DNA of 64,000 nucleotides, taken from the NCBI RefSeq assembly GCF_988243305.1, contig NZ_OZ547136.1. The stretch is one strand, 5' to 3'. Below, in pieces: positions 41,238 through 64,000 of this stretch. Each line of letters opens with the position of its first letter. Position 1 is the first letter of the stretch. The position numbers and the translations under genes were made by a program. Under the pieces are notes generated by a model. The model saw only the letters and a program-made list of their open reading frames with translations, did not search any database and had not been told where the DNA came from.

Positions 41238-41265
41238 GCCTCTCCTCGCGAGAGGCTTTTTTTAT
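41238..41265 (+). terminator. Rho-independent terminator of pykA
   Basis: Hairpin gcctctc-ctcgc-gagaggc followed by a T-run. Confidence 0.75.
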
Positions 41266-42233
41266 TTGATGGGATAAAGATCTTTGCGCTTATACGGTTG
41301 GATTTCGCCCGGTTTGCGAGTTTTCAGCAATTTTAATATCCAGGTGTATTGTTCTGGTCGCGGACCAACAAAAATCTCGACTTCTTCATTCATCCGCCGC
41401 GCAATTGTATGATCATCCGCCTCTAACAGATCATCCATCGGTGGGCGCACCTGAATCGTCAGACGATGCGTCTTGCCATCATAAATCGGAAACAGCGGTA
41501 CAACGCGCGCACGACACACTTTCATCAAACGACCAATCGCGGGCAACGTCGCTTTATAGGTGGCAAAGAAATCAACAAATTCGCTGTGCTCTGGGCCATG
41601 ATCCTGATCGGGTAAATAATATCCCCAGTAGCCCTGACGTACCGACTGGATGAATGGTTTAATACCATCATTTCTCGCATGCAGACGACCGCCAAAACGA
41701 CGACGCACCGTGTTCCAGACATAATCAAAAACCGGGTTGCCCTGATTATGGAACATCGCTGCCATTTTCTGCCCTTGCGAGGCCATCAGCATGGCCGGGA
41801 TATCGACGGCCCAACCGTGCGGCACCAGAAAAATCACTTTCTCGTTATTACGCCGCATCTCTTCGATGATCTCCAGCCCTTGCCAGTCAACGCGCGGCTG
41901 AATTTTCTCCGGCCCGCGTATTGCCAACTCAGCCATCATTGCCATCGCTTGCGGCGCGGTGGCAAACATCTCATCAACAATCGCTTCGCGTTCAGCTTCA
42001 CTACGTTCTGGAAAGCAGAGCGATAAATTGATTAACGCACGACGGCGTGAGCTTTTTCCCAGGCGTCCGGCAAAACGTCCCAGCCGTGCCAGAATGGGGT
42101 CGCGAAACTTTGGCGGCGTTAAAGCAATACCCGCCATCGCTGCTACGCCCAGCCATGCTCCCCAGTAGCGCGGGTGGCGAAAGGATTTATCAAACTCAGG
42201 AATGTATTCGCTATTATTTTTTTTCGTTTCCAT
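41262..42233 (-). CDS. lpxM: Lipid A myristoyl acyltransferase LpxM (MsbB)
   Basis: 323-aa ORF with late acyltransferase HX4D-type region (VPHGWAVD). Confidence 0.95.
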
Positions 42234-42352
42234 GCTTTTCCAGTTTCGGATAAGGCAAAAATCAATCTGGTGATAGTGTAGCGGCGCAACTTGCCCCGCA
42301 CCAAATAAAAAAAGCCGGTACTGACTGCGTACCGGCTGCGAATGGATGTTAA

Positions 42353-43675
42353 TTAATCAAACCGTAGCTGCGGCACAATCTCTTTGGCCTGCGCCAGGAA
42401 TTCGCGACGATCGGAGCCGGTCAGCCCTTCGGTACGCGGCAGTTTTGCCGTCAGCGGGTTTACGGCCTGCTGGTTTATCCATACTTCATAGTGCAGATGC
42501 GGCCCGGTTGAACGTCCGGTATTACCGGAAAGCGCGATACGGTCGCCACGTTTCACCTTCTGTCCCGGTTTCACCAGAATCTTGCGCAAGTGCATATAAC
42601 GCGTGGTGTAGCTGCGACCATGACGAATAGCCACATAATAACCTGCTGCGCCACTGCGTTTGGCAACCACCACTTCACCGTCACCCACTGAAAGCACCGG
42701 CGTACCCTGTGGCATGGCGAAATCAACACCTCTGTGTGGCGCAACACGACCAGTCACCGGATTAGTACGACGCGGGTTAAAGTTAGACGAGATACGGAAC
42801 TGTTTCGCCGTCGGGAATCGCAAGAATCCTTTCGCCAGACCAGTACCGTTACGATCGTAGAATTTGCCATCTTCAGCGCGGATTGCGTAATAATCTTTAC
42901 CTTCTGAACGCAAACGTACGCCCAGCAGTTGGCTTTGCTCACGTTTACCATCAAGCATTTCTCGTGACATTAACACCGCAAATTCATCGCCTTTTTTCAG
43001 TTTGCGGAAATCCATTTGCCACTGCATGGCTTTAATCACTGCGCTCACTTCGGCGCTGGTTAAACCGGCGTTTCTGGCGCTGGCAACAAAGCTTCCCCCG
43101 ACGGTACCTTTCAGCAGATTGTTGACCCACTCTCCTTGCTGCATTTCGCTGGTCATTTTAAAACCGTTAGCGGCAGTACGGTCATAGGTTCGGGTTTCAC
43201 GACGAGACACTTCCCAGGTGAGGCGCTGCAGTTCGCCGTCCGCGGTTAATGTCCAGGAGAGTTGTTGACCGATTTTCAGGTTACGCAATTCTTTGTCGGC
43301 AGCAGCCAATTGGGTGATATCACCCATATCAATACCATACTGATTGAGAATGCTGCTTAGCGTATCGCCAGTGGAAACAACATATTCATGCACGCCCGCT
43401 TCACCGGCGATTTTGTCATCCAGTTCATCCTGGGGAATGGCTTCATCTTCTTGTGCAGCTTGATCAATCGGCTCACTGGCTTCAGGTAAGAGCGAACGAA
43501 TTTCGTTCTGTTCCAGCTCAATGGTTTTGACAATTGGCGTGGCATCGCGGTGATAAACATAGGGCCGCCAGACAGCGACGGCCAGAGTAAGAACGGTGAG
43601 CGACCCCAACATAACGCGGTGTGGTCGCGGTAAATTATTAAACGCCAGGGCGACAGAGCGGGCTATCTGTTGCAC
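42353..43675 (-). CDS. mepM: Murein DD-endopeptidase MepM (YebA), LysM plus M23/LytM domains
   Basis: 440-aa ORF with M23 peptidase motifs ([14 protein letters not shown]). Confidence 0.95.
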
Positions 43676-43690
43676 GTAATCACTTCCTCA

Positions 43691-44623
43691 TTAATCTCCT
43701 TTCAGGCAGCTCGCATACTGGTTGGCTAATTGATTCAGGAATTCTGAATAGCTTGTTTTACCCAGTTTGATATTCGTCCCCAGGGGATCCAACGTTCCCA
43801 TACGAACGGATGTCCCTCGTGCGACGCTCTCAACGACCGCTGGCCTGAACTGTGGCTCAGCAAAAACGCAGGTTGCTTTTTGCTCAACCAACTGTGTTCT
43901 TATTTCATGTAAACGCTGCGCGCCAGGTTGAATCTCAGGGTTAACGGTAAAATGACCAAGCGGTGTCAGTCCGAACTGTTTTTCGAAATAGCCGTAAGCA
44001 TCGTGAAAAACGAAATAACCTTTCCCCTTGAGCGGCGCGAGCTCGTTACCAACCTGCTTTTCGGTTGAGGCTAATTGTGCCTCAAAATCCTTCAGGTTGG
44101 CGTCAAGTTTGGCTCGACTTTGCGGCATAAGTTCCACTAATTTTCCATGGATTGCAACCGCTGTAGCCCGCGCTATCTCTGGGGAAAGCCAAAGATGCAT
44201 GTTGAAATCGCCGTGATGGTGATCTTCGTCACTTTTTTCCGCGTGGTCGTGATCATCATCATCGCCGTGAATACTTTTCATCAGCAGCGGTTTCACATTC
44301 TCTAGCTGCGCAATCGTTACCTGTTTCGCTTCAGGTAATTTACTTACCGGTTTTTGCATGAACGCTTCCATCTCCGGGCCAACCCAAACGACTAAGTCCG
44401 CGTTCTGTAAGCGTTTTACATCTGATGGACGCAGTGAATAATCATGTTCTGAAGCGCCGTCAGGTAGTAAAACCTCCGTTTCTGTTACCCCATCAGCAAT
44501 GGCAGAAGCGATGAACCCAACGGGTTTAAGCGAAGCGACAACGGCAGCATCTGCGGCCTGTGTTGCACCGCCCCAGAGAGCGGCGGATAATGCTGCGAAA
44601 AGAAGCGTTTTTTTATGTAACAT
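43691..44623 (-). CDS. znuA: Zinc ABC transporter periplasmic binding protein ZnuA
   Basis: Start at [23 protein letters not shown] (signal peptide), 310 aa; His/Asp-rich loop; the track ORF is extended upstream. Confidence 0.95.
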
Positions 44624-44645
44624 AATGCGACCAATCATCGTAATG

Positions 44646-44677
44646 AATATGAGAAGTGTGATATTATAACATTTCAT
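44646..44677. promoter_or_regulatory. Zur box in the divergent znuA / znuCB promoter region
   Basis: aatatgagaagtgtgatattataacatttcat is the reverse complement of the recalled Zur operator GAAATGTTATAATATCACACTTCTCATATT. Confidence 0.8.
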
Positions 44678-44701
44678 GACTACTGCAAGACTAAAATTAA
44701 C

Positions 44702-45457
44702 ATGACAAGTCTGGTTTCCCTGGAAAATGTCTCGGTTTCTTTTGGCCAACGCCGCGTCCTCTCTGATGTGTCGCTGGAACTTAAACCTGGAAAAATTTTG
44801 ACTTTACTTGGGCCAAATGGCGCAGGTAAGTCGACACTGGTACGGGTAGTGCTCGGGCTGGTAACACCCGATGAAGGGGTTATCAAGCGCAACGGAAAAC
44901 TGCGCATCGGCTATGTACCGCAGAAGCTGTATCTCGACACCACGTTGCCACTGACCGTAAACCGTTTTTTACGCTTACGCCCTGGCACACATAAAGAAGA
45001 TATTTTGCCTGCACTGAAACGTGTCCAGGCCGGGCATCTGATTAACGCACCGATGCAAAAGCTCTCGGGTGGCGAAACACAGCGTGTATTGTTAGCGCGA
45101 GCATTGTTAAATCGACCGCAATTATTAGTGCTGGATGAACCCACTCAGGGCGTGGATGTGAATGGTCAGGTGGCGTTATATGACCTTATTGACCAGTTGC
45201 GTCGCGAACTGGATTGTGGCGTTTTAATGGTCTCTCACGATCTGCATCTGGTAATGGCAAAAACCGATGAAGTGCTTTGCCTGAATCACCACATTTGTTG
45301 TTCCGGTACACCGGAAGTTGTTTCCCTGCATCCGGAGTTTATTTCTATGTTTGGTCCTCGTGGTGCTGAACAACTGGGTATCTATCGCCATCATCATAAT
45401 CATCGTCACGATTTACAGGGACGAATTGTTTTGCGTCGGGGAAATGATCGCTCATGA
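44702..45457 (+). CDS. znuC: Zinc ABC transporter ATPase ZnuC
   Basis: 251-aa ORF with Walker A (GPNGAGKST), signature LSGGE and Walker B. Confidence 0.96.
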
Positions 45458-46239
45458 TTGAATTATTATTTCCCGGTTGGTTAGCCGGGATCATGCTCGC
45501 CTGTGCCGCGGGTCCGCTGGGTTCGTTTGTGGTCTGGCGTCGTATGTCTTATTTCGGTGATACGCTGGCCCATGCCTCATTACTTGGTGTCGCGTTTGGT
45601 TTGTTGCTGGACGTGAATCCATTCTATGCGGTGATTGCAGTTACGCTGCTGCTGGCGGGCGGTCTGGTATGGCTGGAGAAGCGTCCACAGCTGGCGATCG
45701 ACACGTTATTAGGGATTATGGCGCACAGTGCCCTGTCGCTGGGCCTGGTGGTCGTTAGTCTGATGTCTAATATTCGTGTTGATTTGATGGCTTACCTGTT
45801 CGGTGATTTGCTGGCAGTGACGCCAGAAGATCTCATCTCTATTGCAATTGGCGTGGTCATCGTGGTGGCGATTTTGTTCTGGCAATGGCGCAATTTGCTG
45901 TCGATGACGATTAGCCCGGATCTGGCGTTTGTTGATGGTGTGAAATTACAGCGCGTGAAATTGTTGTTGATGCTGGTGACGGCATTGACGATTGGTGTAG
46001 CGATGAAATTTGTCGGCGCGTTGATTATTACTTCGCTGCTGATTATTCCTGCAGCTACAGCGCGTCGCTTTGCCCGCACGCCGGAACAGATGGCCGGTGT
46101 CGCTGTTTTGGTGGGAATGGTGGCAGTAACTGGCGGTTTAACCTTTTCCGCATTTTACGATACGCCGGCGGGTCCGTCGGTAGTGCTATGTGCGGCACTG
46201 TTATTTATTATCAGTATGATGAAAAAGCAGGCCAGTTAA
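45454..46239 (+). CDS. znuB: Zinc ABC transporter permease ZnuB
   Basis: 261-aa polytopic membrane protein overlapping the znuC stop. Confidence 0.96.
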
Positions 46240-46257
46240 TCTATCGCTGAACACATT

Positions 46258-47402
<1,145 letters not shown>

Positions 47403-47407
47403 TTACC

Positions 47408-48019
47408 TCATAACGCGGCGCGTAGGGCTTCGCGAATTAATGTTTCACTGCTGGCGTCAGGGCGAGCGATTTTGCTCACCATGCGGCTTGCTTCTTGTGG
47501 TTTATAGCCCAGCGCCACCAGCGCGGCAACCGCTTCCTGTTCAGCATCGTCGGTCACCGGGCTGGCAGGTGACGTGAGTACCAGGTCGGCAGCTGGCGTA
47601 AAGAGATCGCCATGCAAACCTTTAAATCGGTCTTTCATTTCAACAATCAAGCGTTCGGCGGTTTTTTTGCCAATACCCGGCAGTTTCACTAGTGCCCCCA
47701 CTTCTTCACGCTCAACGGCATTAACGAACTGCTGCGCTGACATTCCAGAGAGGATCGCCAGCGCCAACTTCGGGCCGACGCCGTTGGTTTTGATCAACTC
47801 TTTGAACAACGTGCGCTCTTGTTTATTGTTAAAACCGTACAGCAGTTGCGCGTCTTCACGCACCACAAAGTGGGTGAAAACGATCGCTTCCTGACCCGCT
47901 TCAGGGAGTTCATAAAAACAGGTCATCGGCATATGCACTTCATAGCCTACGCCGCCCACTTCAATTAACACCAGCGGGGGTTGTTTTTCAATGATGATGC
48001 CTCTGAGTCTGCCTATCAC
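47408..48019 (-). CDS. ruvA: Holliday junction DNA helicase subunit RuvA
   Basis: 203-aa ORF upstream of ruvB. Confidence 0.97.
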
Positions 48020-48067
48020 ATGACGCTCCTGCGTAATGAATCAAAGATAATGCTTATGATAAAAAAA

Positions 48068-48087
48068 TGCTGGATAGATATCCAGCG
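48068..48087 (-). promoter_or_regulatory. LexA (SOS) box of the ruvAB operon
   Basis: Minus strand reads CGCTGGATATCTATCCAGCA, the known CTGG-N8-CCAG variant box upstream of ruvA. Confidence 0.85.
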
Positions 48088-48292
48088 AAGGATGAAGAAA
48101 ACTTGCGAGGCGTCCCGATGTTCTGAAAAATGACGCAGTATAATTTTTTCTACAGGTTATATTGGAAGCAAATATTTAAATATTACATATTCAGTGAAAA
48201 AATGCGTAATAAAAATACACATTGCGCCTCCTGAAAAAATAAATTTTTTATGCTATTACGTATATTCATATCTATTTCAATGGAATGACAAC

Positions 48293-48841
48293 GTGAATAT
48301 TAATTATCCTGCTGAATATGAAATTGGTGATATCATCTTTACATGTATAGGTGCTGCCTTATTTGGTCAAATATCAGCTGCATCAAATTGCTGGAGTAAT
48401 CACGTCGGGATCATTATCGGTCATAACGGTGAAGACTTTCTGGTTGCAGAAAGCCGTGTTCCCCTCTCAACCATCACTACGCTATCCCGTTTTATTAAAC
48501 GCTCTGCTAATCAACGCTATGCTATAAAGCGATTAGACGCCGGGCTAACAGAACAACAAAAACAACGAATTGTTGAACAGGTTCCCTCCCGGCTACGCAA
48601 ACTTTACCACACCGGTTTTAAATACGAATCTTCGCGCCAGTTCTGTTCAAAATTTGTCTTTGATATTTATAAAGAGGCACTATGTATTCCGGTGGGTGAA
48701 ATAGAGACGTTTGGAGAACTGTTAAACAGCAATCCAAATGCAAAACTCACTTTCTGGAAATTCTGGTTCCTGGGTTCTATTCCGTGGGAGCGTAAAACCG
48801 TCACGCCAGCCAGTTTGTGGCATCATCCGCGTTTGGTGTAA
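48293..48841 (+). pseudogene. yebB: yebB with its 3' end interrupted by IS10
   Basis: Frame reads ...SLWHHPRLV then stops inside the IS; the same frame resumes after the IS at 50168 (LIHAEGVETPQPELTEAV*). Start placed at a probable GTG (MNINYPAEY...). Confidence 0.75.
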
Positions 48842-50167
48842 GGAGATCCCCTCATAATTTCCCCAAAGCGTAACCATGTGTGAATAAATTTTGAGCTAGT
48901 AGGGTTGCAGCCACGAGTAAGTCTTCCCTTGTTATTGTGTAGCCAGAATGCCGCAAAACTTCCATGCCTAAGCGAACTGTTGAGAGTACGTTTCGATTTC
49001 TGACTGTGTTAGCCTGGAAGTGCTTGTCCCAACCTTGTTTCTGAGCATGAACGCCCGCAAGCCAACATGTTAGTTGAAGCATCAGGGCGATTAGCAGCAT
49101 GATATCAAAACGCTCTGAGCTGCTCGTTCGGCTATGGCGTAGGCCTAGTCCGTAGGCAGGACTTTTCAAGTCTCGGAAGGTTTCTTCAATCTGCATTCGC
49201 TTCGAATAGATATTAACAAGTTGTTTGGGTGTTCGAATTTCAACAGGTAAGTTAGTTGCTAGAACCCATGGCTCCTTTGCCGACGCTGAGTAGATTTTAG
49301 GTGACGGGTGGTGACAATGAGTCCGTGTCGAGCGCTGATTTTTTCGGCCTTTAGAGCGAGATTTATACAATAGAATTTGGCATGAGATTGGATTGCTTTT
49401 AGTCAGCCTCTTATAGCCTAAAGTCTTTGAGTGACTAGATGACATATCATGTAAGTTGCTGATAGGTTTCCAGTTTTCCGCTCCTAGGTCTGCATATTGT
49501 ACTTTTCCTCTTACTCGACTTAACCAGTACCAACCCAGCTTCTCAACGGATTTATACCATGGCACTTTAAAGCCAGCATCACTGACAATGAGCGGTGTGG
49601 TGTTACTCGGTAGAATGCTCGCAAGGTCGGCTAGAAATTGGTCATGAGCTTTCTTTGAACATTGCTCTGAAAGCGGGAACGCTTTCTCATAAAGAGTAAC
49701 AGAACGACCGTGTAGTGCGACTGAAGCTCGCAATACCATAAGTCGTTTTTGCTCACGAATATCAGACCAGTCAACAAGTACAATGGGCATCGTATTGCCC
49801 GAACAGATAAAGCTAGCATGCCAACGGTATACAGCGAGTCGCTCTTTGTGGAGGTGACGATTACCTAACAATCGGTCGATTCGTTTGATGTTATGTTTTG
49901 TTCTCGCTTTGGTTGGCAGGTTACGGCCAAGTTCGGTAAGAGTGAGAGTTTTACAGTCAAGTAATGCGTGGCAAGCCAACGTTAAGCTGTTGAGTCGTTT
50001 TAAGTGTAATTCGGGGCAGAATTGGTAAAGAGAGTCGTGTAAAATATCGAGTTCGCACATCTTGTTGTCTGATTATTGATTTTTGGCGAAACCATTTGAT
50101 CATATGACAAGATGTGTATCTACCTTAACTTAATGATTTTTACCAAAATCATTAGGGGATTCATCAG
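48839..50167 (-). mobile_element. IS10 insertion sequence (1329 bp)
   Basis: 402-aa IS10 transposase ORF; outside end reads CTGATGAATCCCCTAATGATTTTGGTA at 50167; identical 9-bp direct repeats cgtttggtg at 48830-48838 and 50168-50176. Confidence 0.88.
48852..50060 (-). CDS. IS10 (IS4-family) transposase
   Basis: 402-aa ORF MCELDILHDSLYQFCPELHLKRLNSLTLACHALLDCKTLTL... matching the recalled Tn10/IS10 transposase. Confidence 0.95.
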   Translation of the reverse strand: MCELDILHDSLYQFCPELHLKRLNSLTLACHALLDCKTLTLTELGRNLPTKARTKHNIKRIDRLLGNRHLHKERLAVYRWHASFICSGNTMPIVLVDWSDIREQKRLMVLRASVALHGRSVTLYEKAFPLSEQCSKKAHDQFLADLASILPSNTTPLIVSDAGFKVPWYKSVEKLGWYWLSRVRGKVQYADLGAENWKPISNLHDMSSSHSKTLGYKRLTKSNPISCQILLYKSRSKGRKNQRSTRTHCHHPSPKIYSASAKEPWVLATNLPVEIRTPKQLVNIYSKRMQIEETFRDLKSPAYGLGLRHSRTSSSERFDIMLLIALMLQLTCWLAGVHAQKQGWDKHFQANTVRNRNVLSTVRLGMEVLRHSGYTITREDLLVAATLLAQNLFTHGYALGKL

Positions 50168-50234
50168 CGTTTGGTGTTGATTCATGCGGAGGGAGTGGAA
50201 ACGCCTCAGCCGGAACTGACCGAGGCGGTATAAC

Positions 50235-50756
50235 TTAACGCAGTCGCCCTCTCGCCAGGTTCAGCCGCGATTCGCTCATCTGCATCGCATTCTGACTGAC
50301 GTGACAATGGGTAATCGCGATAGCTAATGCATCGGCAGCATCCGCCTGTGGATTAGCGGGCAGTTTCAGCAAGGTGCGGACCATATGCTGCACCTGGCTT
50401 TTTTCAGCACTACCAATACCTACCACCGTTTGCTTTACCTGACGTGCCGCATATTCAAATACCGGCAATTCCTGATTCACCGCCGCCACAATCGCCACGC
50501 CGCGTGCCTGCCCCAGTTTCAGGGCTGAGTCAGCGTTCTTCGCCATAAAGACTTGTTCAATGGCGAAATAATCAGGCTGGAACTGGGTAATGATTTCCGT
50601 CACGCCCGCATAGATGAGCTTCAGACGAGACGGTAAATCATCCACTTTGGTGCGTATGCATCCGCTACCCAGGTAGGAGAGTTGCCTGCCTACCTGGCGG
50701 ATGACGCCATAGCCGGTCACGCGCGAACCCGGGTCAATACCGAGAATAATAGCCAT
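50235..50756 (-). CDS. ruvC: Holliday junction resolvase RuvC
   Basis: 173 aa from the second Met ([18 protein letters not shown]...). Confidence 0.96.
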
Positions 50757-50790
50757 CACGCGTCTCCGTTTTGCTGTTTAGCAGGCCTCA

Positions 50791-51531
50791 TCAGAGAGTC
50801 GCTGCAACCTCATCAGAGATTTCACCGTTATGGTAAACTTCCTGCACGTCGTCGCAATCTTCCAGCATATCGATCAGACGCATCAGTTTCGGTGCGGTTT
50901 CTGCATCCATATCAGCTTTGGTGGACGGGATCATGGAAACTTCCGCGCTGTCTGCTTTCAGACCTGCCGCTTCCAGAGCGTCGCGCACTTTACCCATTTC
51001 TTCCCATGCAGTGTAGACGTCAATCGCGCCGTCATCATAGGTCACAACGTCTTCAGCACCTGCTTCCAGAGCTGCTTCCATGATGGTGTCTTCATCGCCT
51101 TTCTCGAAGGAGATCACGCCTTTTTTGCTGAACAGGTAGGCTACGGAACCATCGGTACCGAGGTTACCGCCACATTTGCTGAATGCATGACGCACTTCAG
51201 CAACGGTACGGTTGCGGTTGTCAGACAGACATTCAATCATGATTGCCGTGCCGCCAGGACCGTAACCTTCGTAGATGATGGTTTCCATGTTTGCATCATC
51301 ATCACCGCCCACACCACGTGCAATTGCGCGGTTCAGAGTGTCACGGGTCATGTTGTTAGACAATGCTTTATCAATTGCTGCACGCAGACGCGGGTTAGCG
51401 TCCGGGTCACCACCGCCCAGCTTAGCCGCGGTTACCAGCTCACGAATGATTTTAGTGAAGATTTTACCGCGCTTAGCATCCTGCGCAGCTTTACGATGTC
51501 TGGTGTTGGCCCATTTACTATGACCTGCCAT
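50791..51531 (-). CDS. yebC: YebC/PmpR-family transcriptional regulatory protein
   Basis: 246-aa ORF; synteny ruvC-yebC-nudB. Confidence 0.93.
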
Positions 51532-51559
51532 AAAAATATCTCCAGATAGCCCTGCCTGT

Positions 51560-52012
51560 TCAGGCAGCGTTAATTACAAACTGTTCAATCGCCTGCCGGT
51601 TGCTCCAGGACTTAGTGAGCGCCGCCGCAGCAGGCGCATCAAGCCACTTGTAGGCCAGATGTTCAGTGAAGACGACCTGGCGTTCGTGCGGGAGCGCAAG
51701 ACAGAACCATGATTCCGTATTACGCGTCACGCCCGGCGCATAGCGATGACGTAAATGTGAAAAAATTTCAAATTCTACCGTGCGCTGACAGTCAATTAAG
51801 GTCAGTTGTTCAGCGACAACATCGATGGTGACCTCTTCCTTTACTTCGCGCATGGCAGCTTGCGGCGCGGTTTCACCCTCTTCCACGCTGCCGGTTACCG
51901 ACTGCCAGAAATCGGGATCGTCACGCCGCTGCAACATCAGCACCCGTTTCGTATCTTGTGCATAGATGACCACTAAGATCGAAACGGGACGCTTATACAC
52001 TTTATCCTTCAC
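51560..52012 (-). CDS. nudB: Dihydroneopterin triphosphate pyrophosphatase (Nudix)
   Basis: Start at GTG giving [15 protein letters not shown]... (150 aa); Nudix box [21 protein letters not shown]. Confidence 0.92.
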
Positions 52013-52129
52013 GCTGCCTCTTCGTTGACTGCCTTCGCTCATCCCATTCACATAGTTATCTATGCTCATGGGAGTTCACTCAGTTGCCGCCTCGATGCAA
52101 CGCGAATGATTTCGTGTATTTGAGTCATA

Positions 52130-53902
52130 TCAGTTATTCTCTGCCTTCTTCACAACCTGAATGCTCAGCTCAGCCAGTGCAGTCGGGTTAGCAAAGCTCG
52201 GTGCTTCAGTCATCAGACACGCTGCCGCCGTGGTTTTCGGGAAGGCGATAACGTCACGGATATTGTCGGTGCCGGTCAGCAGCATGGTCAAACGGTCAAG
52301 ACCGAATGCCAGGCCTGCGTGCGGCGGAGTACCGTATTTCAGGGCGTCGAGCAGGAAGCCGAATTTCTCGCGCTGTTCCTCTTCGTTGATACCCAGAATA
52401 CCAAACACCGTCTGCTGCATATCACCATTATGGATACGCACAGAACCACCGCCCACTTCGTAACCATTGATGACCATATCGTAAGCGTTCGCCACCGCAT
52501 TTTCCGGTGCAGCTTTCAGTTCTGCTGCCGTCATGTCTTTTGGTGAGGTGAACGGATGGTGCATTGCCGTCAGGCCGCCTTCACCGTCGTCTTCAAACAT
52601 CGGGAAGTCGATAACCCACAGCGGTGCCCATTTGCTTTCGTCGGTCAGACCAAGGTCTTTACCCACTTTCAGGCGCAGTGCACCCATCGCGTCGGCAACA
52701 ATTTTCTTGTTGTCGGCACCGAAGAAAATCATATCGCCATCTTGCGCGGCAGTACGATCCAGAATGGCTTCGATGATTTCTGCATTAAGGAACTTCGCTA
52801 CCGGGCTGTTGATACCTTCCAGACCTTTCGCGCGCTCGTTAACTTTAATGTAAGCCAGACCTTTCGCGCCGTAGATTTTAACGAAGTTACCGTATTCGTC
52901 GATCTGTTTACGGGTCAGCGATGCGCCGCCCGGAACGCGCAGAGCCGCTACGCGACCTTTCGGATCGTTCGCCGGACCTGCAAATACTGCAAATTCAACG
53001 GATTTCAGCAGATCGGCAACGTCGGTCAGTTCCATCGGGTTACGCAGATCCGGTTTATCAGAGCCGTAACGGCGTTCGGCTTCCGCAAAGGTCATTACCG
53101 GGAAATCGCCCAGATCCACGCCCTTCACTTCCAGCCACAGATGACGCACCAGCGCTTCCATCACTTCACGCACTTGCGGCGCGGTCATGAAAGAAGTTTC
53201 CACATCGATCTGAGTAAATTCAGGCTGACGATCAGCGCGCAGGTCTTCGTCACGGAAGCATTTAACGATCTGATAGTAACGGTCAAAACCGGACATCATC
53301 AGCAGCTGTTTGAACAACTGTGGGGATTGCGGCAGTGCGTAGAATTTACCTTTGTGCACACGAGAAGGCACCAGGTAGTCACGCGCGCCTTCCGGCGTGG
53401 CTTTGGTCAGCATCGGAGTTTCGATGTCGAGGAAGCCGTGGTCATCCATAAAACGGCGCACCAGGCTGGTGATTTTAGCGCGGGTTTTCAGGCGCTGAGC
53501 CATTTCCGGGCGACGCAGGTCGAGGTAGCGGTATTTCAGACGCGCTTCTTCGGTGTTGACGTGGTTAGAGTCAAGCGGCAGAACATCTGCGCGGTTGATG
53601 ATAGTCAGCGAGGACGCCAGCACTTCAATTTCGCCGGTCGCCATATCGCGGTTAATATTTTTTTCGTCACGCGCACGTACGGTGCCCGTGACCTGAATGC
53701 AGAACTCATTACGCAGTTCAGAGGCCAGCTTTAACGCGTCCGCACGATCCGGATCGAAAAATACCTGCACGATACCTTCGCGGTCGCGCATATCGATGAA
53801 GATCAGGCTACCAAGATCACGACGACGGTTGACCCAACCACACAGAGTCACCTGCTGCCCCACGTGGGACAAACGGAGCTGTCCACAATATTCTGTACGC
53901 AT
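52130..53902 (-). CDS. aspS: Aspartate--tRNA ligase
   Basis: 590-aa class II aminoacyl-tRNA synthetase. Confidence 0.97.
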
Positions 53903-54211
53903 GAGATATCCCTTAACTTAGCTGCCGGCGGATGCCCCCTGCTGCGCAGGTGACCAAGTCGCAGCGTTAGCTGTATGTCACAACTGAATGAAAAAAGGCG
54001 GCTATTATACTGGAAATTCTGCCGCACCGTAAGAGCCTGGCCCGCGCTGGAACACCTCGTTACCACTTTATATCGGGCCTGAAATCAGACTCTACGCCAG
54101 TTTGCTATAAAGGTGTTGCCCGAACTCATAAAAATTAACAAAATTTGTCGTTCCGCCATCGGCTAATCGCATTAAGGTGAGAGGCACTATTTTGTTTTGT
54201 CAGGAGTCATC

Positions 54212-54778
54212 ATGCTTGAACTTAATGCTAAAACCACTGCGCTGGTGGTGATTGATTTACAAGAAGGCATCTTACCTTTTGCCGGAGGTCCACATACTGC
54301 CGATGAGGTGGTTAATCGCGCCGGGAAGCTGGCGGCGAAATTTCGCGCGAGCGGTCAGCCCGTGTTTCTGGTGCGCGTTGGCTGGTCTGCCGATTATGCC
54401 GAAGCATTAAAACAGCTGGTTGATGTCCCCTCCCCCGCGAAAGTGTTACCCGAAAACTGGTGGCAACATCCTGCTGCATTAGGTGCAACCGACAGCGATA
54501 TCGAAATCATCAAACGTCAATGGGGTGCGTTTTACGGTACGGATCTGGAGTTGCAACTGCGCCGCCGGGGTATCGATACAATAGTATTATGTGGGATCTC
54601 GACCAATATCGGTGTTGAATCCACCGCCCGCAATGCCTGGGAACTCGGTTTTAATCTGGTGATTGCCGAAGACGCCTGCAGCGCCGCCAGCGCCGAGCAG
54701 CACAATAACAGCATCAACCATATCTACCCACGCATCGCCCGTGTGCGCAGTGTGGAAGAGATCCTCAACGCATTATGA
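54212..54778 (+). CDS. yecD: Isochorismatase-family hydrolase YecD
   Basis: Start at [20 protein letters not shown]... (188 aa). Confidence 0.93.
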
Positions 54779-54885
54779 TTTACATCGGTCTGCCGCAATG
54801 GTCGCATCCTAAATGGGTGCGGTTGGGGATCACCAGCCTTGAAGAGTATGCCCGCCACTTTAACTGCGTGATACGGAATTTTTAA
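54775..54885 (+). pseudogene. yecE: 5' fragment of yecE, interrupted by prophage integration
   Basis: ATG overlaps the yecD stop (ATGA) and encodes [32 protein letters not shown], matching recalled YecE for about 32 codons; the frame then diverges and stops after 4 codons (IRNF*). Confidence 0.8.
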
Positions 54886-54997
54886 AAATCACTAAAGAAC
54901 GCCCAAGAGCATGTTTTTTATTTAGAAGAATCAAAGCGTTGTATTTCCATGTCATATAAAAATCGGCAAAGTTCATATGTAACAAAGTGTCCCAATC

Positions 54998-55046
54998 ATG
55001 CCCCAAAATGCCCCACAACAAATATTTTTGCCCCATGCATGCCCCA
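54998..55046 (+). repeat. Four direct repeats of (A)TGCCCCA in the prophage arm
   Basis: atgcccca at 54998, 55008, 55039 and tgcccca at 55029. Confidence 0.6.
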
Positions 55047-55067
55047 AAAAATCACTTTCCTTCACCC

Positions 55068-55119
55068 TTGACACTGTTTATCCATACAGTTAAAAATGAT
55101 ACTGTATACAAACACAGTG
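55068..55119 (+). promoter_or_regulatory. Promoter with two tandem LexA boxes upstream of the dinI-like gene
   Basis: TTGACA at 55068-55073; CTGT-N8-ACAG boxes at 55072-55091 (cactgtttatccatacagtt) and 55100-55119 (tactgtatacaaacacagtg); RBS agaggg before the ATG. Confidence 0.75.
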
Positions 55120-55132
55120 TAGAGGGACTTTT

Positions 55133-55381
55133 ATGCGTATTGAAATCTGCATAGCCAAAGAAAAAATGACTAAAATGCCAACCGGTGCTGTGGATGCGTT
55201 AAAGGAAGAATTAACTCGGCGCATCAGTAAGCGTTATGACGATGTAGAAGTGATCGTAAAAGCCACCAGCAATGATGGGCTTTCTGTTACACGCACAGCA
55301 GATAAGGATTCTGCAAAAACATTTGTTCAGGAGACTCTGAAAGATACCTGGGAGTCTGCTGACGAGTGGTTTGTTCACTAA
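55133..55381 (+). CDS. DinI-family DNA-damage-inducible protein (prophage-encoded)
   Basis: 82-aa [12 protein letters not shown]...[11 protein letters not shown] resembling E. coli DinI (MRIEVTIAK...TWESADDWFV). Confidence 0.85.
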
Positions 55382-55449
55382 TAAACACGTAAAATCGGTA
55401 ACGGCTGGAAATCATTCAATACTCGCACTATCGAAAGTTCACCAGCCAA

Positions 55450-55495
55450 CCGCAGCACGTCCTGCATACGTCGTGTCTGCGGTTTTTCTTTTTCG
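55450..55495 (+). terminator. Hairpin and T-run downstream of the dinI-like gene
   Basis: ccgcagcacgtcctgcatacgtcgtgtctgcgg followed by tttttctttttcg. Confidence 0.55.
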
Positions 55496-55496
55496 C

Positions 55497-55766
55497 TTAC
55501 ATTGTGTCTGGTTCTTCCGGCCACTCAATATCAGGTGCAGTTGATGTATCAACACGGTTCAGCAACACCCGATATTTATTCCATGCCTCCAGCAACGATC
55601 TTTCTTCCTCCGTTGCGATTTCCAGATCTACAGCATCCTGCAGTGGCGCAATATACTCACTGAATTCCTGGATGTAGAACTGTGTGGTGACGGTCTTCCA
55701 GCCATTCGGCTCCTGCTGTATCGAAGCATACCAGGCTATTTCAATATCGCTATGCTGCGGCAGCAT
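55497..55766 (-). pseudogene. Tail fiber assembly protein remnant (C-terminal Tfa domain with unrelated N-terminus)
   Basis: C-terminal about 50 aa ([45 protein letters not shown]) near-identical to the full tfa at 56546-57130; about 150 bp of DNA is a direct repeat of the tfa 3' end. Confidence 0.7.
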
Positions 55767-55822
55767 TTAACCCCTTGTAATTCATCGCCATAATTGATTT
55801 AATTCACAAATAAAACTATAAC

Positions 55823-56491
55823 ATGGTGAAATCAATGAAAAAAAACACAGATGATGGGGCTAAAATTTACACACCACTTACCCTAAAGCTTTATGACTGG
55901 TGGGTTTTGGGAGTATCAAATCGGCTTGCATGGGGATGTCCTACAAAGGAACACCTTCTTCCACACTTTCTGGAACATTTAGGTAACAACCATCTGGATA
56001 TTGGTGTTGGAACTGGGTTTTATCTTACTCACGTACCTGAGAGTAGTCTGATATCTTTAATGGATTTGAACGAAGCTAGCCTGAACGCGGCATCTACAAG
56101 GGCTGGGGAATCAAAAATTAAACATAAAATTAGCCATGATGTTTTTGAACCTTATCCCGCGGCGTTACATGGTCAATTTGATTCCATTTCCATGTTTTAC
56201 CTTCTTCACTGCCTGCCTGGAAATATATCTACAAAAAGCTGTGTAATACGCAATGCGGCGCAGGCCTTAACTGACGATGGAACTCTATACGGAGCCACAA
56301 TTCTTGGCGATGGAGTTGTGCACAATAGCTTCGGTCAAAAACTGATGCGCATTTACAATCAGAAAGGCATCTTTTCAAACACAAAAGATTCCGAAGAAGG
56401 CTTAACACATATACTCTCAGAGCATTTCGAGAATGTTAAAACCAAGGTTCAAGGTACTGTAGTAATGTTTTCCGCTTCAGGGAAAAAATAG
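55823..56491 (+). CDS. Class I SAM-dependent methyltransferase of unknown specificity (prophage moron); start may be the ATG at 55835
   Basis: 222-aa ORF with Rossmann motif I (LDIGVGTGFY), acidic post-I residue (LMDLNE) and motif II-like FDSISMFYLLHCLP; no DNA-methyltransferase motifs (DPPY or PC dipeptide); local composition visibly AT-rich. Confidence 0.8.
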   Translation: MVKSMKKNTDDGAKIYTPLTLKLYDWWVLGVSNRLAWGCPTKEHLLPHFLEHLGNNHLDIGVGTGFYLTHVPESSLISLMDLNEASLNAASTRAGESKIKHKISHDVFEPYPAALHGQFDSISMFYLLHCLPGNISTKSCVIRNAAQALTDDGTLYGATILGDGVVHNSFGQKLMRIYNQKGIFSNTKDSEEGLTHILSEHFENVKTKVQGTVVMFSASGKK

Positions 56492-56499
56492 CATCCAAC

Positions 56500-56535
56500 C
56501 GCAGCACGTTCTTGCTTAAGACGTGCTGCGGCATA
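56500..56535 (-). terminator. Hairpin terminator downstream of tfa
   Basis: Perfect 11-bp stem ccgcagcacgt / acgtgctgcgg with a T-run on the minus strand. Confidence 0.6.
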
Positions 56536-56545
56536 ATCCCAATGA

Positions 56546-57130
56546 TTACTCACTGACAGGGTTCGTAGGCCACTCAATATCAGGTGCAGTTGATGTATCA
56601 ACACGGTTCAGCAACACCCGATACTTCTTCCAGGCTTCCAGCAACGAGTTTTCTTCCTCCGTTGCGATTTCCAGATCTGCAGCATCCTGAAGCGGCGCAA
56701 TATGCTCACTGGCTACCTGCATCAGGTTGTTTTTTGTTTCTTCCGCCTCCCGGATCCGGAACAGTTTTTCTGCTTCCGTATCCTTCACCCAGGCTGTGCC
56801 GTTCCACTTCTGAAACTCCCCTTCCGGCGATAACCAGGTAACATTTTCCGGTAACGGACCGAGTTCAGAAATAAATAACGCGTCGCCGGAAGCCACGTCA
56901 TAAACCGTTTTACCCCGATGGTCTTCAAAGAGATGCCACGATGACTCATCACTGTTGAAAACAGCCACGAAGCCAGCAGGAATATCTGGTGGTGCAATAT
57001 CGGTACTGTTTGCTGGCAGACCTGTATGAGGCGGAATATATGCGTCACCTTCACCAATAAATTCATTAGTTCCGGCCAGCAGATTATAAATTTTTATGGT
57101 CCGTGGTTGTTCACTCATTCTGAATGCCAT
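56546..57130 (-). CDS. tfa: Tail fiber assembly protein Tfa
   Basis: 194-aa ORF overlapping the stf stop by 1 nt; matches lambdoid Tfa. Confidence 0.92.
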
Positions 57131-59826
57131 TATGCAAGCCTCACAATGTAGTTAAATGCGATGTTTTTGACGGTGTTTTCCGCGTTACCCGCAGCGTTAA
57201 CGGTGATGGTATGTCCATGTGAACCAATCGCAACGGAGTGCGTATGAGCACCAATACCGACAGTATGCGCGTGTGCACCTGCAGATGCTGCTGTGCCGGA
57301 CAGTGAGTGGCTATGATTACCATCTGTACTGGTATTCGCTAACCACCCCGTAGACATACCTACTGAGCCTTGTACACCCCAGGTATTTTGACCTGAGCTT
57401 GTATAACCATATTGATAAGTATCTTTAAAAACACTGGGGTTAAATCGACGGCCATCTCTATGGCTGTGATTACCAGCTGCATTCGTGCTGCCACTTAAAC
57501 TATGGGTATGCGCACCAGTGTTATTCGTGGATTTAGTGCCGTAATCAAACGACGATGTGGTTTTCGTCCCCAAATCCGTACTGGATGCGCTGGCGCTGTG
57601 GGTGTGCGATTTAATGCCGTCCCGTTCCTGAGACAATACGGCACGACCACTGGCAGGTTTGCCCTTAATCGTCCAGCCACGCATATCAGGGATCACGCCT
57701 GACGGATAAGCGGCTGCAAGTTCCGGGTAGGCAGATTTGTCAAAAGTCTGCCCCTGCATCAGGGCATAACCAGACGGAACGGTATCCGATGGCCACGGGA
57801 TTGGTGCGCCAGGCGGATAAAACTGCTCTGATGGCGTATAGAGTGAATAAACTGTACCGTCCGTTAACCCTTCCGGCTTATTAGCAGAATATGCTGGTGA
57901 CGTATGAATCGTCACGCTGGCATTACTGGTATAATCCCATTGAATATTTACACCAGTCGCATAATTTCCGATTGCAACGTAAATATCGTAAGTATCACCA
58001 GATGTATTGACCCAGGCAAAATTTGTAAACCCTGTCGATGTGCGCTGCCATAAAGCACCAGTAATCCCCTTCGGATTACCATTACCTGCACGCAAAACAA
58101 GTTCAGATATACCTGCCTGTTGAGGTGAACCGACGTTAAATCCAGCGCCACCAATCAACGTAATTGAAACAACAGAACTCGCCTGTGGCATGGTTACCGT
58201 TGCTAATTTGAACCAACCAGCACCACCGCTGAATGACATTGTTGTTGAGTTAAGCGTACCAATATCTTTCGGCGTCAGTGTTATATCCTCCGAAAGCGCC
58301 TTACCATTCACCTTACGGTCAGAAGGTACCCGATCATTCGCATTGTCATTCGCTGCTTTAACTGCCTTCGGTGTCGCGGCAAGCGTTTCAGACGTACTGT
58401 TTGTCGCACTGCTGAGCTGTACTATCCCCTTTTTCGTCGTGCTCGCATCCTCAAGCGCCACGGCGGATGCAATATCCTCTGCCCGTTTTGCCGCTGTCTC
58501 AGCGCGCGTTGCTGCGGATTCTGCCGTACTTTTGCTCTGTGCTGCCGCTGTCGCACTGCCAGCAGCCTCTGTCGCCTTTGTGGATGCCGTCGTGGCGCTG
58601 CTCTTCGCTGCTGACGCCTGTCTGGTCGCCTCATCTTTTGAAGCAGACGCCGATGATGCCGATGACGCCGCCGAACTGGCGGACGATGCCGCTGCCGTTT
58701 TTGAGGATTCTGCGCTGGTTTCCGACGCTTTCGCGTTCGTTTCGGATGTCTTCGCTGAGGAAGCAGACCTCGCTGCTGCGCTGGCCTGTTCAGTGGCTTC
58801 GCCAGTCTTCGTTGTGGCTGTTGAAGCGGATGATGCGGCGCTTTCTGCCGATTTTCCGGCGGCGGTGGCACTGACTGAGGCCTGCCCGGCACTTGTTGAT
58901 GCGGCACTGGCGGACGACGCAGCCGCTGTTTTTGAATCTGCCGCAGCTGAGGCACTCTGTCCCGCTGCCGTTTCAGAAGACCTGGCGTTCGTCTCGGACG
59001 TTTTGGCCGCCTTCGCAGAATTTGCTGTCGCCGTTGCCGAGGAAGCTGCGCTGCTGGCGCTCGAGGCTGCGCTCGTTTCTGATGATTTTGCCGCCTCTTT
59101 TGAAGCCGACGCATCCCGGGCTGAGGTGGCAGCTTCTGACGCTTTCGTGGTCGCGGTGGATGCAGAAGTGGCTGCTGATTGTTGTGACGCTGCGGCATTC
59201 GTTTCTGACGTTTTCGCCGCAGCGGCACTGGTGGCCGCCGCGCTTTTTGAGGACTCTGCAGCGGCAGCACTTTTTTCCGCTTCAGTGGCCTTTGTTGATG
59301 CCGTTTCTGCGCTGGAAGACGCTGACTGAGCCGACGACGCGGCCTGTCCGGCTGACATGCTGGCTGCGCGTGCTGAGCCTGCAGCATCAGTCGCATGGGT
59401 TGCCGCCTCACGGGCTGATGTGCTGGCATCGCCGGCTGACTTCTTCGCGGCTGCCGTGTTCTGTGCCACTGCGGACGCGTTACGCTCCACCTCTTCCACC
59501 ATCACTTCAAAACGGCGCAGTGCCTCCGGTCGGACATCATCCTCCGTCATGGCACCGAGAAAATCATTCAGCGTACCTGGTCTGGAACCTTCATAGACGG
59601 TAATGGTCCCGGCATGTGAAGGCGGAAAACCTTCAACCAGCAGGGTGACGCTGTACTGACCATGCTCAACATCCATGCTGTAACGTCCGGCTTCATCCGG
59701 ATTTTCAGAGGCCACCGTGTTCACCACCACCGTGCTGCTGGTTCGTCTGGCCTTCAGCACAATGGTGCAGTTCTGTACTGGTTTTCCTGTGCCATCTTTA
59801 AGCACGCCAGAAATTTTTACTGTCAT
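57130..59826 (-). CDS. stf: Side tail fiber protein Stf
   Basis: 898-aa ORF with conserved N-terminus ([17 protein letters not shown]...), long Ser/Ala/Thr-rich repeat region, and C-terminal HxH-repeat region (HTHS, GAHTHS, GNHSHS, GSHGHT). Confidence 0.93.
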
Positions 59827-59837
59827 ACTTTTCCACC

Positions 59838-59875
59838 AATAAAAAAAGCCCGCAGCAGTGACGCCACGGGCTTCA
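59838..59875 (-). terminator. Hairpin and T-run between lom and stf
   Basis: Minus strand reads agcccgtggcgtcactgctgcgggc followed by ttttttt. Confidence 0.5.
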
Positions 59876-59977
59876 GGACAGTGTAACTTTACGTTTCCTC
59901 AAACGCAGTTCACCCCATAAGGTGGATGAACCTGCGTATCATAACAATATTTACAGAAGATAAATCGGCGTCTGTTG

Positions 59978-60577
59978 TCAGAAACGGTATCCGATACCAA
60001 CAATAAATGCATCCGTTCGCCAGTCGCCACTACCGGAACCTTCATAAGCAAGGTCAATGGTCACGGATTCGGTCGGGTTAAACTGCACGCCAGCCCCCCA
60101 CGCCAGAGACGTGTTGCTGTGGCGACCGTCATCACTTCCGGTCAGCACATCGTGCGTTTTCCCCTTGTTGTCAGTTACGCGGAGATAATCCCCGGAGAAA
60201 GTCGACACACGGCTGTAAGACACACCCGCCATCGCATACGCGCTGAACCATTCATTCACGCGCACAGACGGCCCCGCCATTACGCTGAACCAGCGGTTAC
60301 GAACGGAATCTTCATGCCAGCGGGTATCGCTGTAACGGGTCAGCTGGCGATTCTTGTCTCCTGCATAGCTGAATGACGTCACCAGCCCCAGTGTGTCCGT
60401 AAACTCATAACGGTATTTCACGTTAATCCCGTTCAGATCATCACTGCCGGGGACGTTCGTCGAGGCATGAAGATACCCCGCGCTCAGCGTGGACTGATGT
60501 TCAGACGCCCATGCAGGCGCACCGGATACGGCCAGACAAATGGCTGCGGACAAAATTGCTGCACAAACTTTACGCAT
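59978..60577 (-). CDS. lom: Outer membrane protein Lom (Ail/PagC/OmpX family)
   Basis: 199-aa ORF with signal peptide and beta-barrel ending in the aromatic residue typical of outer membrane proteins (GIGYRF); position between J and stf as in lambda. Confidence 0.92.
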   Translation of the reverse strand: MRKVCAAILSAAICLAVSGAPAWASEHQSTLSAGYLHASTNVPGSDDLNGINVKYRYEFTDTLGLVTSFSYAGDKNRQLTRYSDTRWHEDSVRNRWFSVMAGPSVRVNEWFSAYAMAGVSYSRVSTFSGDYLRVTDNKGKTHDVLTGSDDGRHSNTSLAWGAGVQFNPTESVTIDLAYEGSGSGDWRTDAFIVGIGYRF

Positions 60578-60599
60578 AATTACCTCTCGCTTTTCTGCA

Positions 60600-60635
60600 A
60601 TAAAAAAGGCGTCACTCCTGACGCCCTTTATTGGG
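60600..60635 (-). terminator. Hairpin and T-run between J and lom
   Basis: Minus strand reads aaagggcgtcaggagtgacgcc followed by ttttttatt. Confidence 0.5.
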
Positions 60636-60647
60636 GTTATAAATATT

Positions 60648-63600
60648 TCAACGAATACTGATGCCGGAAGCGGCTTTTTTGGTCACAATCACCGTACAGT
60701 CGGTGATATTGCCTGCCCCCTGATTGCCTTTCTGGAAAATCTTAAACTCCAGAGTGACGCTACCACCACCACTAGGCATATCAATAACTGCACTGTAACT
60801 ACCGGGAATGGCCCCTTTAGTTTCTCTGGATGCGATTAATACGCCGTTTTTGCGAACTTCAAAACCATAACCCGTGTATCGCGTGCCTCCTGGGTTATTT
60901 CCGCTCCCCGGATCGTCATACGCTATACCGTTAAAAATAATGGGCGGAATAATAATCTGGCGGTCAAAGTTATGATCATCGCTGATGGTGACTGTAACCG
61001 TACCGTTTGGTGTTTCCGTGTTACCCCACGTACCGACTTTTTTCGGGAAGGCTTTTGATACAGCTTTAACGAAATCCCCTCTGACCTGGGTCGCCTCCAG
61101 CATGCCCTTAATCGTACAGTTCTGGTTAATCTTGACATTGTTGAGCGTTCCTGAGTTCGCATTCACACTGCCACTGATATCCGCATTTTTAGCGGTCAGC
61201 TTTCCGTCTGATGTCAGGGAAAATACCGGAGGACTGCCACCGCTGGTAATGGTGGGGGCCGTCAGGCGCTTCAGGAACACGTCGTTCATGAATATCTGGT
61301 TGCCCTGCGCCACAAACATCGGCGTTTCATTCCCGTTTGCCGGGTCAATAAACGCGATACGGTTAGCGGCAACCAGAAACTGGCTCAGCTTGCCTTCCTC
61401 CGTGTCCTCCATGCTGAGGCCAATACCCGCGACATAATGTTTGCCGTCTTTGGTCTGCTCAATTTTGACGCCCCACATGGCATTCCATTTATCGTTAGCG
61501 TCCTTCCACTCTTTCGAAAACTCCTCCAGTCTGCTGGCGTTATCTTCCGTCAGCTCAAAGTTTTCCAGCAGTTCCTTGCCGAGATGCGTTTTATTGATCA
61601 ACCCTTTATAAAAATTCAGATAACCTTCCGCATCATCGCTCGCCCGACCGACGGCCTCCACAAATGCCGATTTACCAACGGTGTTCACGCTGCGGATATA
61701 AAAGTAATAATCATAACCTGGCTTAATATTGCTACTGGCGGCTATCCAGTACAGCGCCGTACCAAGATAACGCGCGCTGGTTTCAACCTGCCTGATATCG
61801 ATAATCCGCTTTTCCGAGAACCAGAACTCAAACTGCACCGTCGGGTCATATACAGCCAGTTTCGGGACCGCTGTTATCTGAAAATACCCTGGTATCAGTT
61901 CAATAGTGACAGGCGCTGCCGGTGCCGCAATCCGGAACGATACCGATGCCGGATCGCCCTGCTGCCCCCACGCATTTACCGCCCGGACCGTCAGCGTGTA
62001 ACGCCCCAGCGCCAGTTGCCTGAAGCGGTATGTGGTTTCCGCCGTCCGGGCCGTGCTGACCAGCCGCTCACTGCCGTCATCCGCTGTTACGGTCAGACGG
62101 AGCAGGAAGCTCACGCCCTTCACCACCTTCGGCGTGTCCCAGCGCGCCAGCACCTGGTATTCCCCGCTGTCTGCGGTGACTTCTGCGGTCAGGTGCTGCA
62201 CCGCTGGCGGCGTGACACCATTTACCGTGCCGCTCTGGTCGCCGTCAAAGTGCGCCCCGTTATCCACGATGGCCTCTTTTTCCGGTACATGCTGCACGGC
62301 GGTGATGGCATACGTGCCGTCGTCGTTCTCACGGATACTCACGCAGCGGAACAGGCGCTGGCGCAGCGTCGGCAGCTTCAGCCCCCATACGCTGTATTCA
62401 GCAACGCCGTCAGGAACACGGCTCACTTTCACCTTCACGCCGTCGGTGACGGACTGAACCTCCACGCTGACCGGACTCCCCTGCCCGTCAACCAGGCTTA
62501 TCAGCGTGGTGCCGGAAGATGGCAGCGTGATTTCACGGTCGAGCGTCAGCGTCCGGGTCTGGCTGTTTACCGCCAGCACGCGCCCGCCGGTGCGGATACC
62601 GGCATAGTCATCATCGCAGATTTCAATGACATCGCCCGGTACATGGCGAAGCCCTTCGGCACCCACGCTGAAGTCCACGGTCTGCGTTTCCAGCAGTTCT
62701 GTTTTAATCAGCCACAGCCCGGCGCGGTGTGCCTGCCCCCGGCTGGTACAGCCAAAAGCATCCATCTTCGTGACGTTACGACCGTAACGGGCAATGGCCT
62801 GCGTGTCCTCCACAAGCTCTGTCGCCGTCTCCCAGCCGTTATTCGGGTCAATCCAGTTCACCTCAACGGCATTATGGCGGTCCTTCAGGGCGCTGAAGCT
62901 GTAGCGGAACGGCGCGCCATCATCCGGCATCACCACATTACTGCGGTTATAGGTCCACACCTTATCCGACGGTCGGTCCTGCACGAACGTCAGCGTCTGC
63001 CCGTTCCATACCGGCATACAGCGCATCGCCGAGCAGAAATCACTGAGCACATCCCACGCCTTACGCTGTGTGGTCAGCCAGGCATTACAGGTGATGCGCG
63101 GCTCCGTGCCGCCAAAACCATTCGGTACCAACTGGTCGCAGTACTGGCCGATAACGTACAGCGCCCATTTGTCCACATCTGCCGCACCAAGACGTTTCCC
63201 CATGCCGTAGCGCGGGTGGGTCAGCATATCCCACAGACACCAGGCCATGTTGTTGCTGTATGCTGGCTTTAACGTTCCGTCCCAGATACCGCTGTATTGC
63301 CGCGTCTGCGGGTTATAGTTCGACGGCACCTGCAGAATACGCCCGCGAAGATGATAATTACGGCTCACCTGCTGGCTGCCGAACTGCTCCGAGTCCACCT
63401 GCACGCCGACCAGTGCCGTGTTCGGGTAGCACTGTTTCACATCGATGATTTCGGTGTATGACGACCAGAGCGTTTTGTTCTGCAGCTGGTCTGTGGTGCT
63501 GTCCGGCGTCATCCTGCGCATCCGGATATTAAACGGGCGCGGCGGCAGGCTACCCACCACCACCGAGGCCAGATACTGCGAGGTGGTTTTGCCCTTAATG

Positions 63601-64000
63601 GTGATGTCTTTTTCCGTCACCCAGCCACCGTTACGTTGTATCTGAACCAGCAGACGGACTTCCGACGGATTCCTGTCACCCTTTGAGGTGTTTTCCACCA
63701 GTGCCTGTACACCGAAGGTAAAGCGCAGACGGTCGATGTTTGCAGACGTAATGGTGCGGGTGATCGGCGTGTCATATTTCACTTCCGTACCCAGCACCGT
63801 CTCGGAGCCGGAGGATTCAAACCCCTCCGGCGGTGTCTGCTCCTGCTCACCGGCACGGAACACCACCGTGACACCGGAGATGTTGGTATTCCCCTCAGTG
63901 TCCAGCACCGGCGTACTGTTCAGCAGCACGCTTTTTAATCCATCCACCGGACCTTCAACCGGCCCTTCGCTGATGGCATCGATCACACTCAGCAACTGCG
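60648..64000 (-). CDS. J: Tail tip host-specificity protein J; 5' end lies beyond the window
   Basis: At least 1115 aa closely resembling lambda J from [11 protein letters not shown] onward; lambda J has about 20 further N-terminal residues, so the true start is outside the window. Confidence 0.93.

Follow-up and report, generated by a model that had tools for sequence, protein, structure and literature searches.

Does the J gene of a lambdoid prophage, whose product otherwise follows that of phage lambda closely, end in a receptor-binding module of another type, and if so, which module is it and which receptor would it address? The question arises from a window of 64,000 nucleotides (the whole stretch analysed; contig NZ_OZ547136.1, assembly GCF_988243305.1), at one end of which J lies. 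An original prediction held that most of J is lambda-like, that its last about 150 residues are not, and that this reflects a swapped receptor-recognition module and likely a different outer-membrane receptor. We used lambda (NC_001416; J, NP_040600.1) and phage 434 (OL657226; J, UMO75286.1) as references, and aligned the three J proteins. The reading that we consider highly probable is of a lambdoid prophage in yecE with a mosaic J, in which about 973 lambda-like codons precede about 164 codons for a 434-type receptor-binding domain (RBD), presumably directed at OmpC.

Prophage context

Positions 1..54870 of the window are E. coli-like chromosome, collinear with K-12 at 96.6-97.5% identity. 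Collinearity stops at 54870/54871, which corresponds to a point about 95 nt inside yecE (K-12 position 1951490), indicating that the prophage is inserted in this gene; only its right ~9 kb lies within the window. Among complete E. coli genomes, the best match to 52000..64000 has 96.5% identity over 87% of the segment, and none combines high identity with full coverage. Among the phages matched in our searches, two carry yecE in their names, Stx2_12E129_yecE, with an identical RBD, and PPyecE_EH1910, with an RBD of another class. Within the chromosomal part, we additionally noted an insertion of ~1.3 kb relative to K-12 (48840..50160), between yebB and ruvC; this presumed IS element contains an ORF for a DDE transposase of 402 aa (48852..50060; Pfam DDE_Tnp_1).

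The prophage end contains a DinI-like gene (55133..55381), a second C-terminal fragment of tfa (55497..55766), 77% identical to residues 132-191 of lambda Tfa, an ORF for a class I SAM methyltransferase (55823..56491) on the opposite strand to tfa, tfa itself (56546..57130; Caudo_TAP domain, 94% to lambda Tfa) and an intact side tail fibre gene, stf (57130..59826, minus strand; 898 aa, phage_tail_N and Collar domains). The stf product is 71% identical to lambda orf-401 at its N-terminus and 71% identical to lambda orf-314 at its His-rich tip, and the gene is longer than the combined span of these two frameshift-split lambda frames. Its centre is long and Ala/Ser-rich, with a G+C content of ~0.61 and a strong AT skew, and Tandem Repeats Finder found no tandem repeats in it. 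No stx gene is visible within the window, unlike the Stx2 phages that carry an identical RBD.

Gene J, the tail tip attachment or central tail fibre protein, occupies 60648..64000 on the minus strand. Its ORF was called at 60648..63995, and the reading frame remains open to the window end. The first 13 visible residues correspond to lambda J from residue 22 onward, and the first 21 codons thus lie beyond the window end. The 1116 visible codons and stop contain no frameshift or internal stop, and the inferred length of 1137 aa equals that of 434 J. Over its whole visible length, the gene is 95% identical in DNA to the J genes of phage 434 and lambda h434 imm21. The product shows the Pfam domain series of the lambda gpJ family, in the order FNIII-A_GpJ, Phage-tail_3, Ig_J, Ig_J_second, Phage_Tail_Tip and Ig_GpJ_C, all above curated cut-offs and ending in the C-terminal receptor-binding domain. 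Downstream of J, the genes follow in the family's order J-lom-stf-tfa on one strand.

A sharp junction between a lambda-like body and a divergent end

The lambda-like character of most of J was borne out by the alignment: residues 22-973 are 92-100% identical to lambda in each 50-residue block, with one block at 84%. Between 42 and 50 of every 50 alignment columns are identical up to column 950, and the count then falls to 37/50, 21/50, 14/50 and 13/43, while the same final blocks match 434 J at 49/50, 49/50, 50/50 and 34/37. The divergent stretch is ~160 residues long (lambda 974-1132; 164 residues here) and about 40% identical to lambda, in good agreement with the predicted 150, and a C-terminus conserved with lambda J, which would have spoken against the original prediction, is not what the full-length alignment shows. 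The 61-residue peptide quoted there to mark the divergent region occurs verbatim in the minus-strand J ORF.

At the DNA level, identity to lambda per 100 nt is 80-99% (mostly at least 89%) down to 61162, 67% in 61161..61062, and 41-57% from 61062 to the J stop codon, where identity to 434 is 95-100%. Mismatches to lambda are few along J down to 61209, zero in 61208..61153 and dense from 61152, which places the junction in 61153..61208, within the codons for a conserved 14-residue segment; the predicted start of divergence, 61150, was essentially exact. The contrast between the lambda-like body and the divergent end is far beyond chance. It is accompanied by a difference in base composition, with a G+C content of 0.478 in the divergent end and 0.576 in the rest of J, against 0.545 and 0.575 in the lambda counterparts.

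Three parts of J can thus be delimited on the minus strand. The lambda-like body (61209..64000, by protein and DNA identity) includes the hub domains, two FNIII/Ig domains, the helical shaft and most of the beta-prism fibre. The junction (61153..61208) comprises 56 nt identical to lambda and encodes part of the 14-residue segment; the junction peptide is conserved in all ten J C-termini that we aligned, and the segment is a conserved anchor at which allele classes join. The 434-type RBD (60651..61152; residues ~974-1137 in full-length numbering) was delimited by identity, Pfam and fold. It ends in a conserved J 3' end of about 13 codons plus the stop (60648..60689), recognised from phage matches and the alignment, where all RBD classes aligned share the motif D--V-V-KK---GI; this 3' end is the downstream anchor of the RBD cassette.

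Family and fold of the divergent end

Profile, sequence and model comparisons show the divergent end to be a diverged member of the gpJ C-terminal domain family, PF12421 (Tip attachment protein J, C-terminal receptor binding domain). Residues 980-1115 of the J fragment align with positions 1-134 of the 135 in the PF12421 profile (Ig_GpJ_C) and score 88.3 bits, where the cut-off is 26.2. The last 164 residues alone, compared with PDB sequences, matched the lambda J RBD over its whole length (8xcj, E=1.4e-23; 8iyk, residues 975-1131), and gave their top match to 'A8 gpJ 713' (9wca, E=1.2e-32). An AlphaFold2 model of the RBD, monomeric and of moderate confidence only (mean pLDDT 73.9, core blocks 85-96), is an all-beta sandwich, for which the four best Foldseek matches in the PDB were the lambda and A8 fibre tips (8xck, 9wcb, 9wca and 8xcj; E~1e-14, TM 0.66), the match ranked after these being ten orders of magnitude worse. 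An unrelated foreign domain at the J C-terminus was also considered, and was ruled out by PF12421, the PDB sequence hits and the fold search.

The ten aligned J C-termini consist of a conserved framework interspersed with variable segments. Fifty-six positions are invariant, including GD-VK, FP, GT-TV, DD--F-RQ, NG--I, DMP-G-G and KK---GI. Relative to lambda, the class of the window and 434 has two additional residues in one segment (ten residues long here) and six in another (14 residues), and its last loop is shorter. By alignment and model, loops are predicted where these indels sit, at residues 52-57, 93-100 and 154-163 of the model. Receptor-contact loops L1-L4 have been described in the lambda J RBD (PMC11101478), and indels confined to predicted loops are the pattern expected of a loop-built receptor-contact surface of this kind. 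The RBD would accordingly retain the Ig-like beta-sandwich framework of lambda, with altered surface loops.

The divergent end as a 434-type allele

By its sequence, the divergent end is the classical phage 434 ('h434') allele of the J RBD, which is already known from textbook phage genetics. It is 97% identical to the 434 RBD over its full length, with no indels, and identity to lambda drops in the same 60-100 nt intervals in the window as in 434, so that the two share their junction with lambda-like sequence. A lambda-type, LamB-binding domain is not what we found, identity to lambda J 975-1132 being ~40%, with indels in the loops. The last 561 nt depart from 434 at seven nucleotides, and five of these changes alter the protein; written window to 434, the substitutions across the final 164 residues are K977T, N1019D, I1108V, Q1110H and G1115R, four of which lie in or beside predicted variable loops.

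We compared the last 148 J residues with a phage collection by tblastn. Identity was 100% in ASU11, mEp460_ev081, Stx2_112808, Stx2_12E129_yecE, Stx2_12E129_PPompW, Stx2_EH1846, Stx2_EH2201 and Stx2a_WGPS6, and 99.3% in phage 2851, ev243, mEp332 and others; phage 434 follows at 96.6-97.3% (97.3% over 148/148 by tblastn) and lambda h434 imm21 at 96.6%. Of 241 phage records with any RBD match, 74 reach at least 90% identity to the window domain, the other 167 stay below 60%, and the range between is empty; the 434-type RBD is a discrete class.

The wider distribution bears on the sense in which the module was swapped. Of 5426 complete E. coli genomes, 2112 (about 39%) carry a match to the 503-nt divergent segment, in up to seven copies per genome, with 527 E. 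coli records at 99% identity or more and 880 at 90-95%. Lambda's own last 495 nt were found in 98 of the same 5426 genomes; every megablast match was at least 99% identical and none was of the 434 type, and among the matches listed, the five carriers of the lambda tip are strains kept in laboratories, DE3 lysogens for instance. The window-type tip is thus common in nature, and the LamB-binding tip of lambda is the rarity. The claim of a swapped receptor-recognition module therefore stands relative to lambda, with 97% identity to the 434 RBD against 40% to the lambda RBD, but does not hold for natural populations, in which the window allele is the common one.

Cassette exchange and the neighbouring gene lom

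The non-lambda, 434-like block extends past the J stop codon, through the intergenic region (60578..60647) and lom, to about 60000. The lom gene (59978..60577, minus strand) encodes an outer-membrane beta-barrel of the Ail/Lom family (Pfam Ail_Lom, E=3.7e-122) and is of the 434 type: its product shares 94% identity with Lom of 434 and 43% with that of lambda, and the DNA of the region, down to about 60064, is 92-100% identical to 434 and 32-72% to lambda. Beyond it, the lom-stf intergenic region (59826..60003) is only 18-38% identical to both lambda and 434, although these two agree with one another at 89-100% over the interval; it is a small replacement specific to the window.

The exclusion genes cor and llp adjoin receptor-binding genes, and by analogy we considered whether lom is functionally tied to the RBD. 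This idea was rejected, as lom type and RBD class are separable. We identified 67 phage records with both the window-type lom and a 434-type RBD, and about 110 that combine the window-type lom with another RBD class, in which the match starts at query position 465 (about 60686). In the other direction, a few phages, HannyBb and ev207 at least, carry a 434-type RBD without the window-type lom.

There are at least four RBD classes, represented by lambda; by 434; by Stx2a_1447, PhiR55_1, PPompW and PhiR40_1; and by Chlobot, PhiR30_1 and A8. These are 40-47% identical in pairwise comparisons, with the exception of the last two, which are ~65% identical to one another. The RBD of A8 gpJ 713 (9wca/9wcb) is 100% identical to those of Chlobot and PhiR30_1, and PhiR30_1 carries this same domain on a lambda-like J body, Chlobot on another one. 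The occurrence of one RBD on two J bodies, together with the separability of lom and RBD, indicates that the RBD acts as a homologously recombined cassette. The window allele would have come by homologous recombination between conserved flanks, of which the upstream one would be the 14-residue segment at the junction and the downstream one either the end of J, with its KKxxxGISx motif, or lom.

Receptor

The prediction of a different outer-membrane receptor is supported by the 97% identity to the 434 RBD taken together with the published genetics of 434, which point to OmpC. The specificity of J is set by its C-terminus, and lambda in which the 434 tail-fibre gene replaces J binds OmpC, as does phage 434 (PMC3509688, PMC11101478); work from 2025 also regards the central fibre of 434 as directed at OmpC (PMC12502783). 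Our own comparison of the hybrid lambda h434 imm21 locates the determinant further. At sites that differ between lambda and 434, the hybrid has the lambda base at all 80 as far as nt 17619 and the 434 base at 292 of 293 from nt 17637, and the switch at this point places the h434 host-range determinant after J residue ~705. Almost all of the differences between lambda and 434 after this residue fall in the last ~500 nt. Near-identity to 434 in this domain argues strongly that the window allele would use OmpC and not LamB.

OmpC is a frequent target of J-type tips, being used by 434, by phi330, which has a further RBD class (PMC12502783), and by A8, for which the link to OmpC comes solely from the title of PDB entry 9wcb. 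In the window phage, as in lambda, the central fibre would present three RBD copies at its tip, which would engage a porin trimer in the outer membrane, and on the precedent of phage 434 and the lambda h434 hybrid, this porin would be OmpC and not LamB. Lambda Stf binds OmpC, and for this reason both fibres of the window phage may target the same porin.

Alternative explanations

The divergent end could in principle be a lambda-type domain that changed in place, through a raised rate of point mutation in an arms race, with no recombinational replacement. The 56 invariant framework positions do point to an ancestor shared by the RBD classes, but DNA identity to lambda changes abruptly, from 93-100% to 43-52% within about 120 nt, and the G+C content falls at the same place. 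Furthermore, the non-lambda block runs on through lom, identical RBD cassettes sit on unrelated J bodies, and the 241 phage records include no intermediates at 60-90%; this explanation is already effectively refuted. More probable than in-place mutation, albeit unlikely, is that the prophage is defective, with J a relic whose RBD no longer functions. Only the right end of the prophage can be seen, and the tfa fragment at 55497..55766 speaks for some decay and rearrangement there. Against this, the reading frames of lom, stf and tfa are intact, as is that of J over its 1116 visible codons, and laboratory lambda itself lacks an intact stf. In the main reading, the prophage would make infectious particles.

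A third explanation accepts the class assignment to 434 but questions the receptor. It holds that the five substitutions shift the fine specificity of the domain, for example towards particular polymorphic OmpC variants or another porin, such that the phage would not behave like 434 on K-12. Consistent with this, five of the seven nucleotide differences in the last 561 nt change the protein, three of the substitutions cluster at 1108-1115, at or beside a variable loop, the 434-type class is internally diverse (the 880 E. coli records at 90-95%), and in the lambda RBD a few point changes open the use of OmpF (PMC11101478). On the other side, the domain is 97% identical to that of 434 without a single indel, and many phages that were grown on ordinary E. 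coli, or come from it, have exactly the window allele, while seven nucleotide differences are too few for a test of selection. We consider such a shift improbable, somewhat more so than a non-functional relic; were it true, the prevalence and diversity of the class would reflect an ongoing arms race with the surface loops of OmpC. We therefore retain the reading of a mosaic J with a 434-type RBD that would recognise OmpC.

Significance

As a discovery, this has little value, since the difference in host range between lambda and 434 J is textbook knowledge and the allele is annotated in thousands of genomes. Its value is for annotation: particles of this prophage are predicted to need OmpC and not LamB, with consequences for host range, superinfection and transduction. 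The LamB-binding tip of laboratory lambda is an unusual allele among natural E. coli prophages.

Comparison with known phages

Phage 434 is one of the closest known counterparts of the window prophage in this region, with the junction to lambda-like sequence at the same place in J and a lom product 94% identical, although its side tail fibre and chaperone are unlike the lambda-like ones of the window. The hybrid lambda h434 imm21 (OM418627) also carries the h434 host-range allele. Lambda J has the same domain architecture, RBD family and fold as the window J (8XCK, 8XCJ, 8IYK), but its RBD is about 40% identical to that of the window, with indels in three or four loops. Stx2_12E129_yecE, with its identical RBD, integrates in yecE by its name, like the window prophage. 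Some phages of this group have a different J body, relatives such as ev243 and phiSTEC1575 matching in two pieces at 92% coverage. Finally, 'A8 gpJ 713' (9WCA; 9WCB, with OmpC of E. coli EDL933) shares the fold and family of the window RBD but is only 46-48% identical to it, and constitutes a separate class, so that the contacts of A8 with OmpC are not transferable to the window allele.
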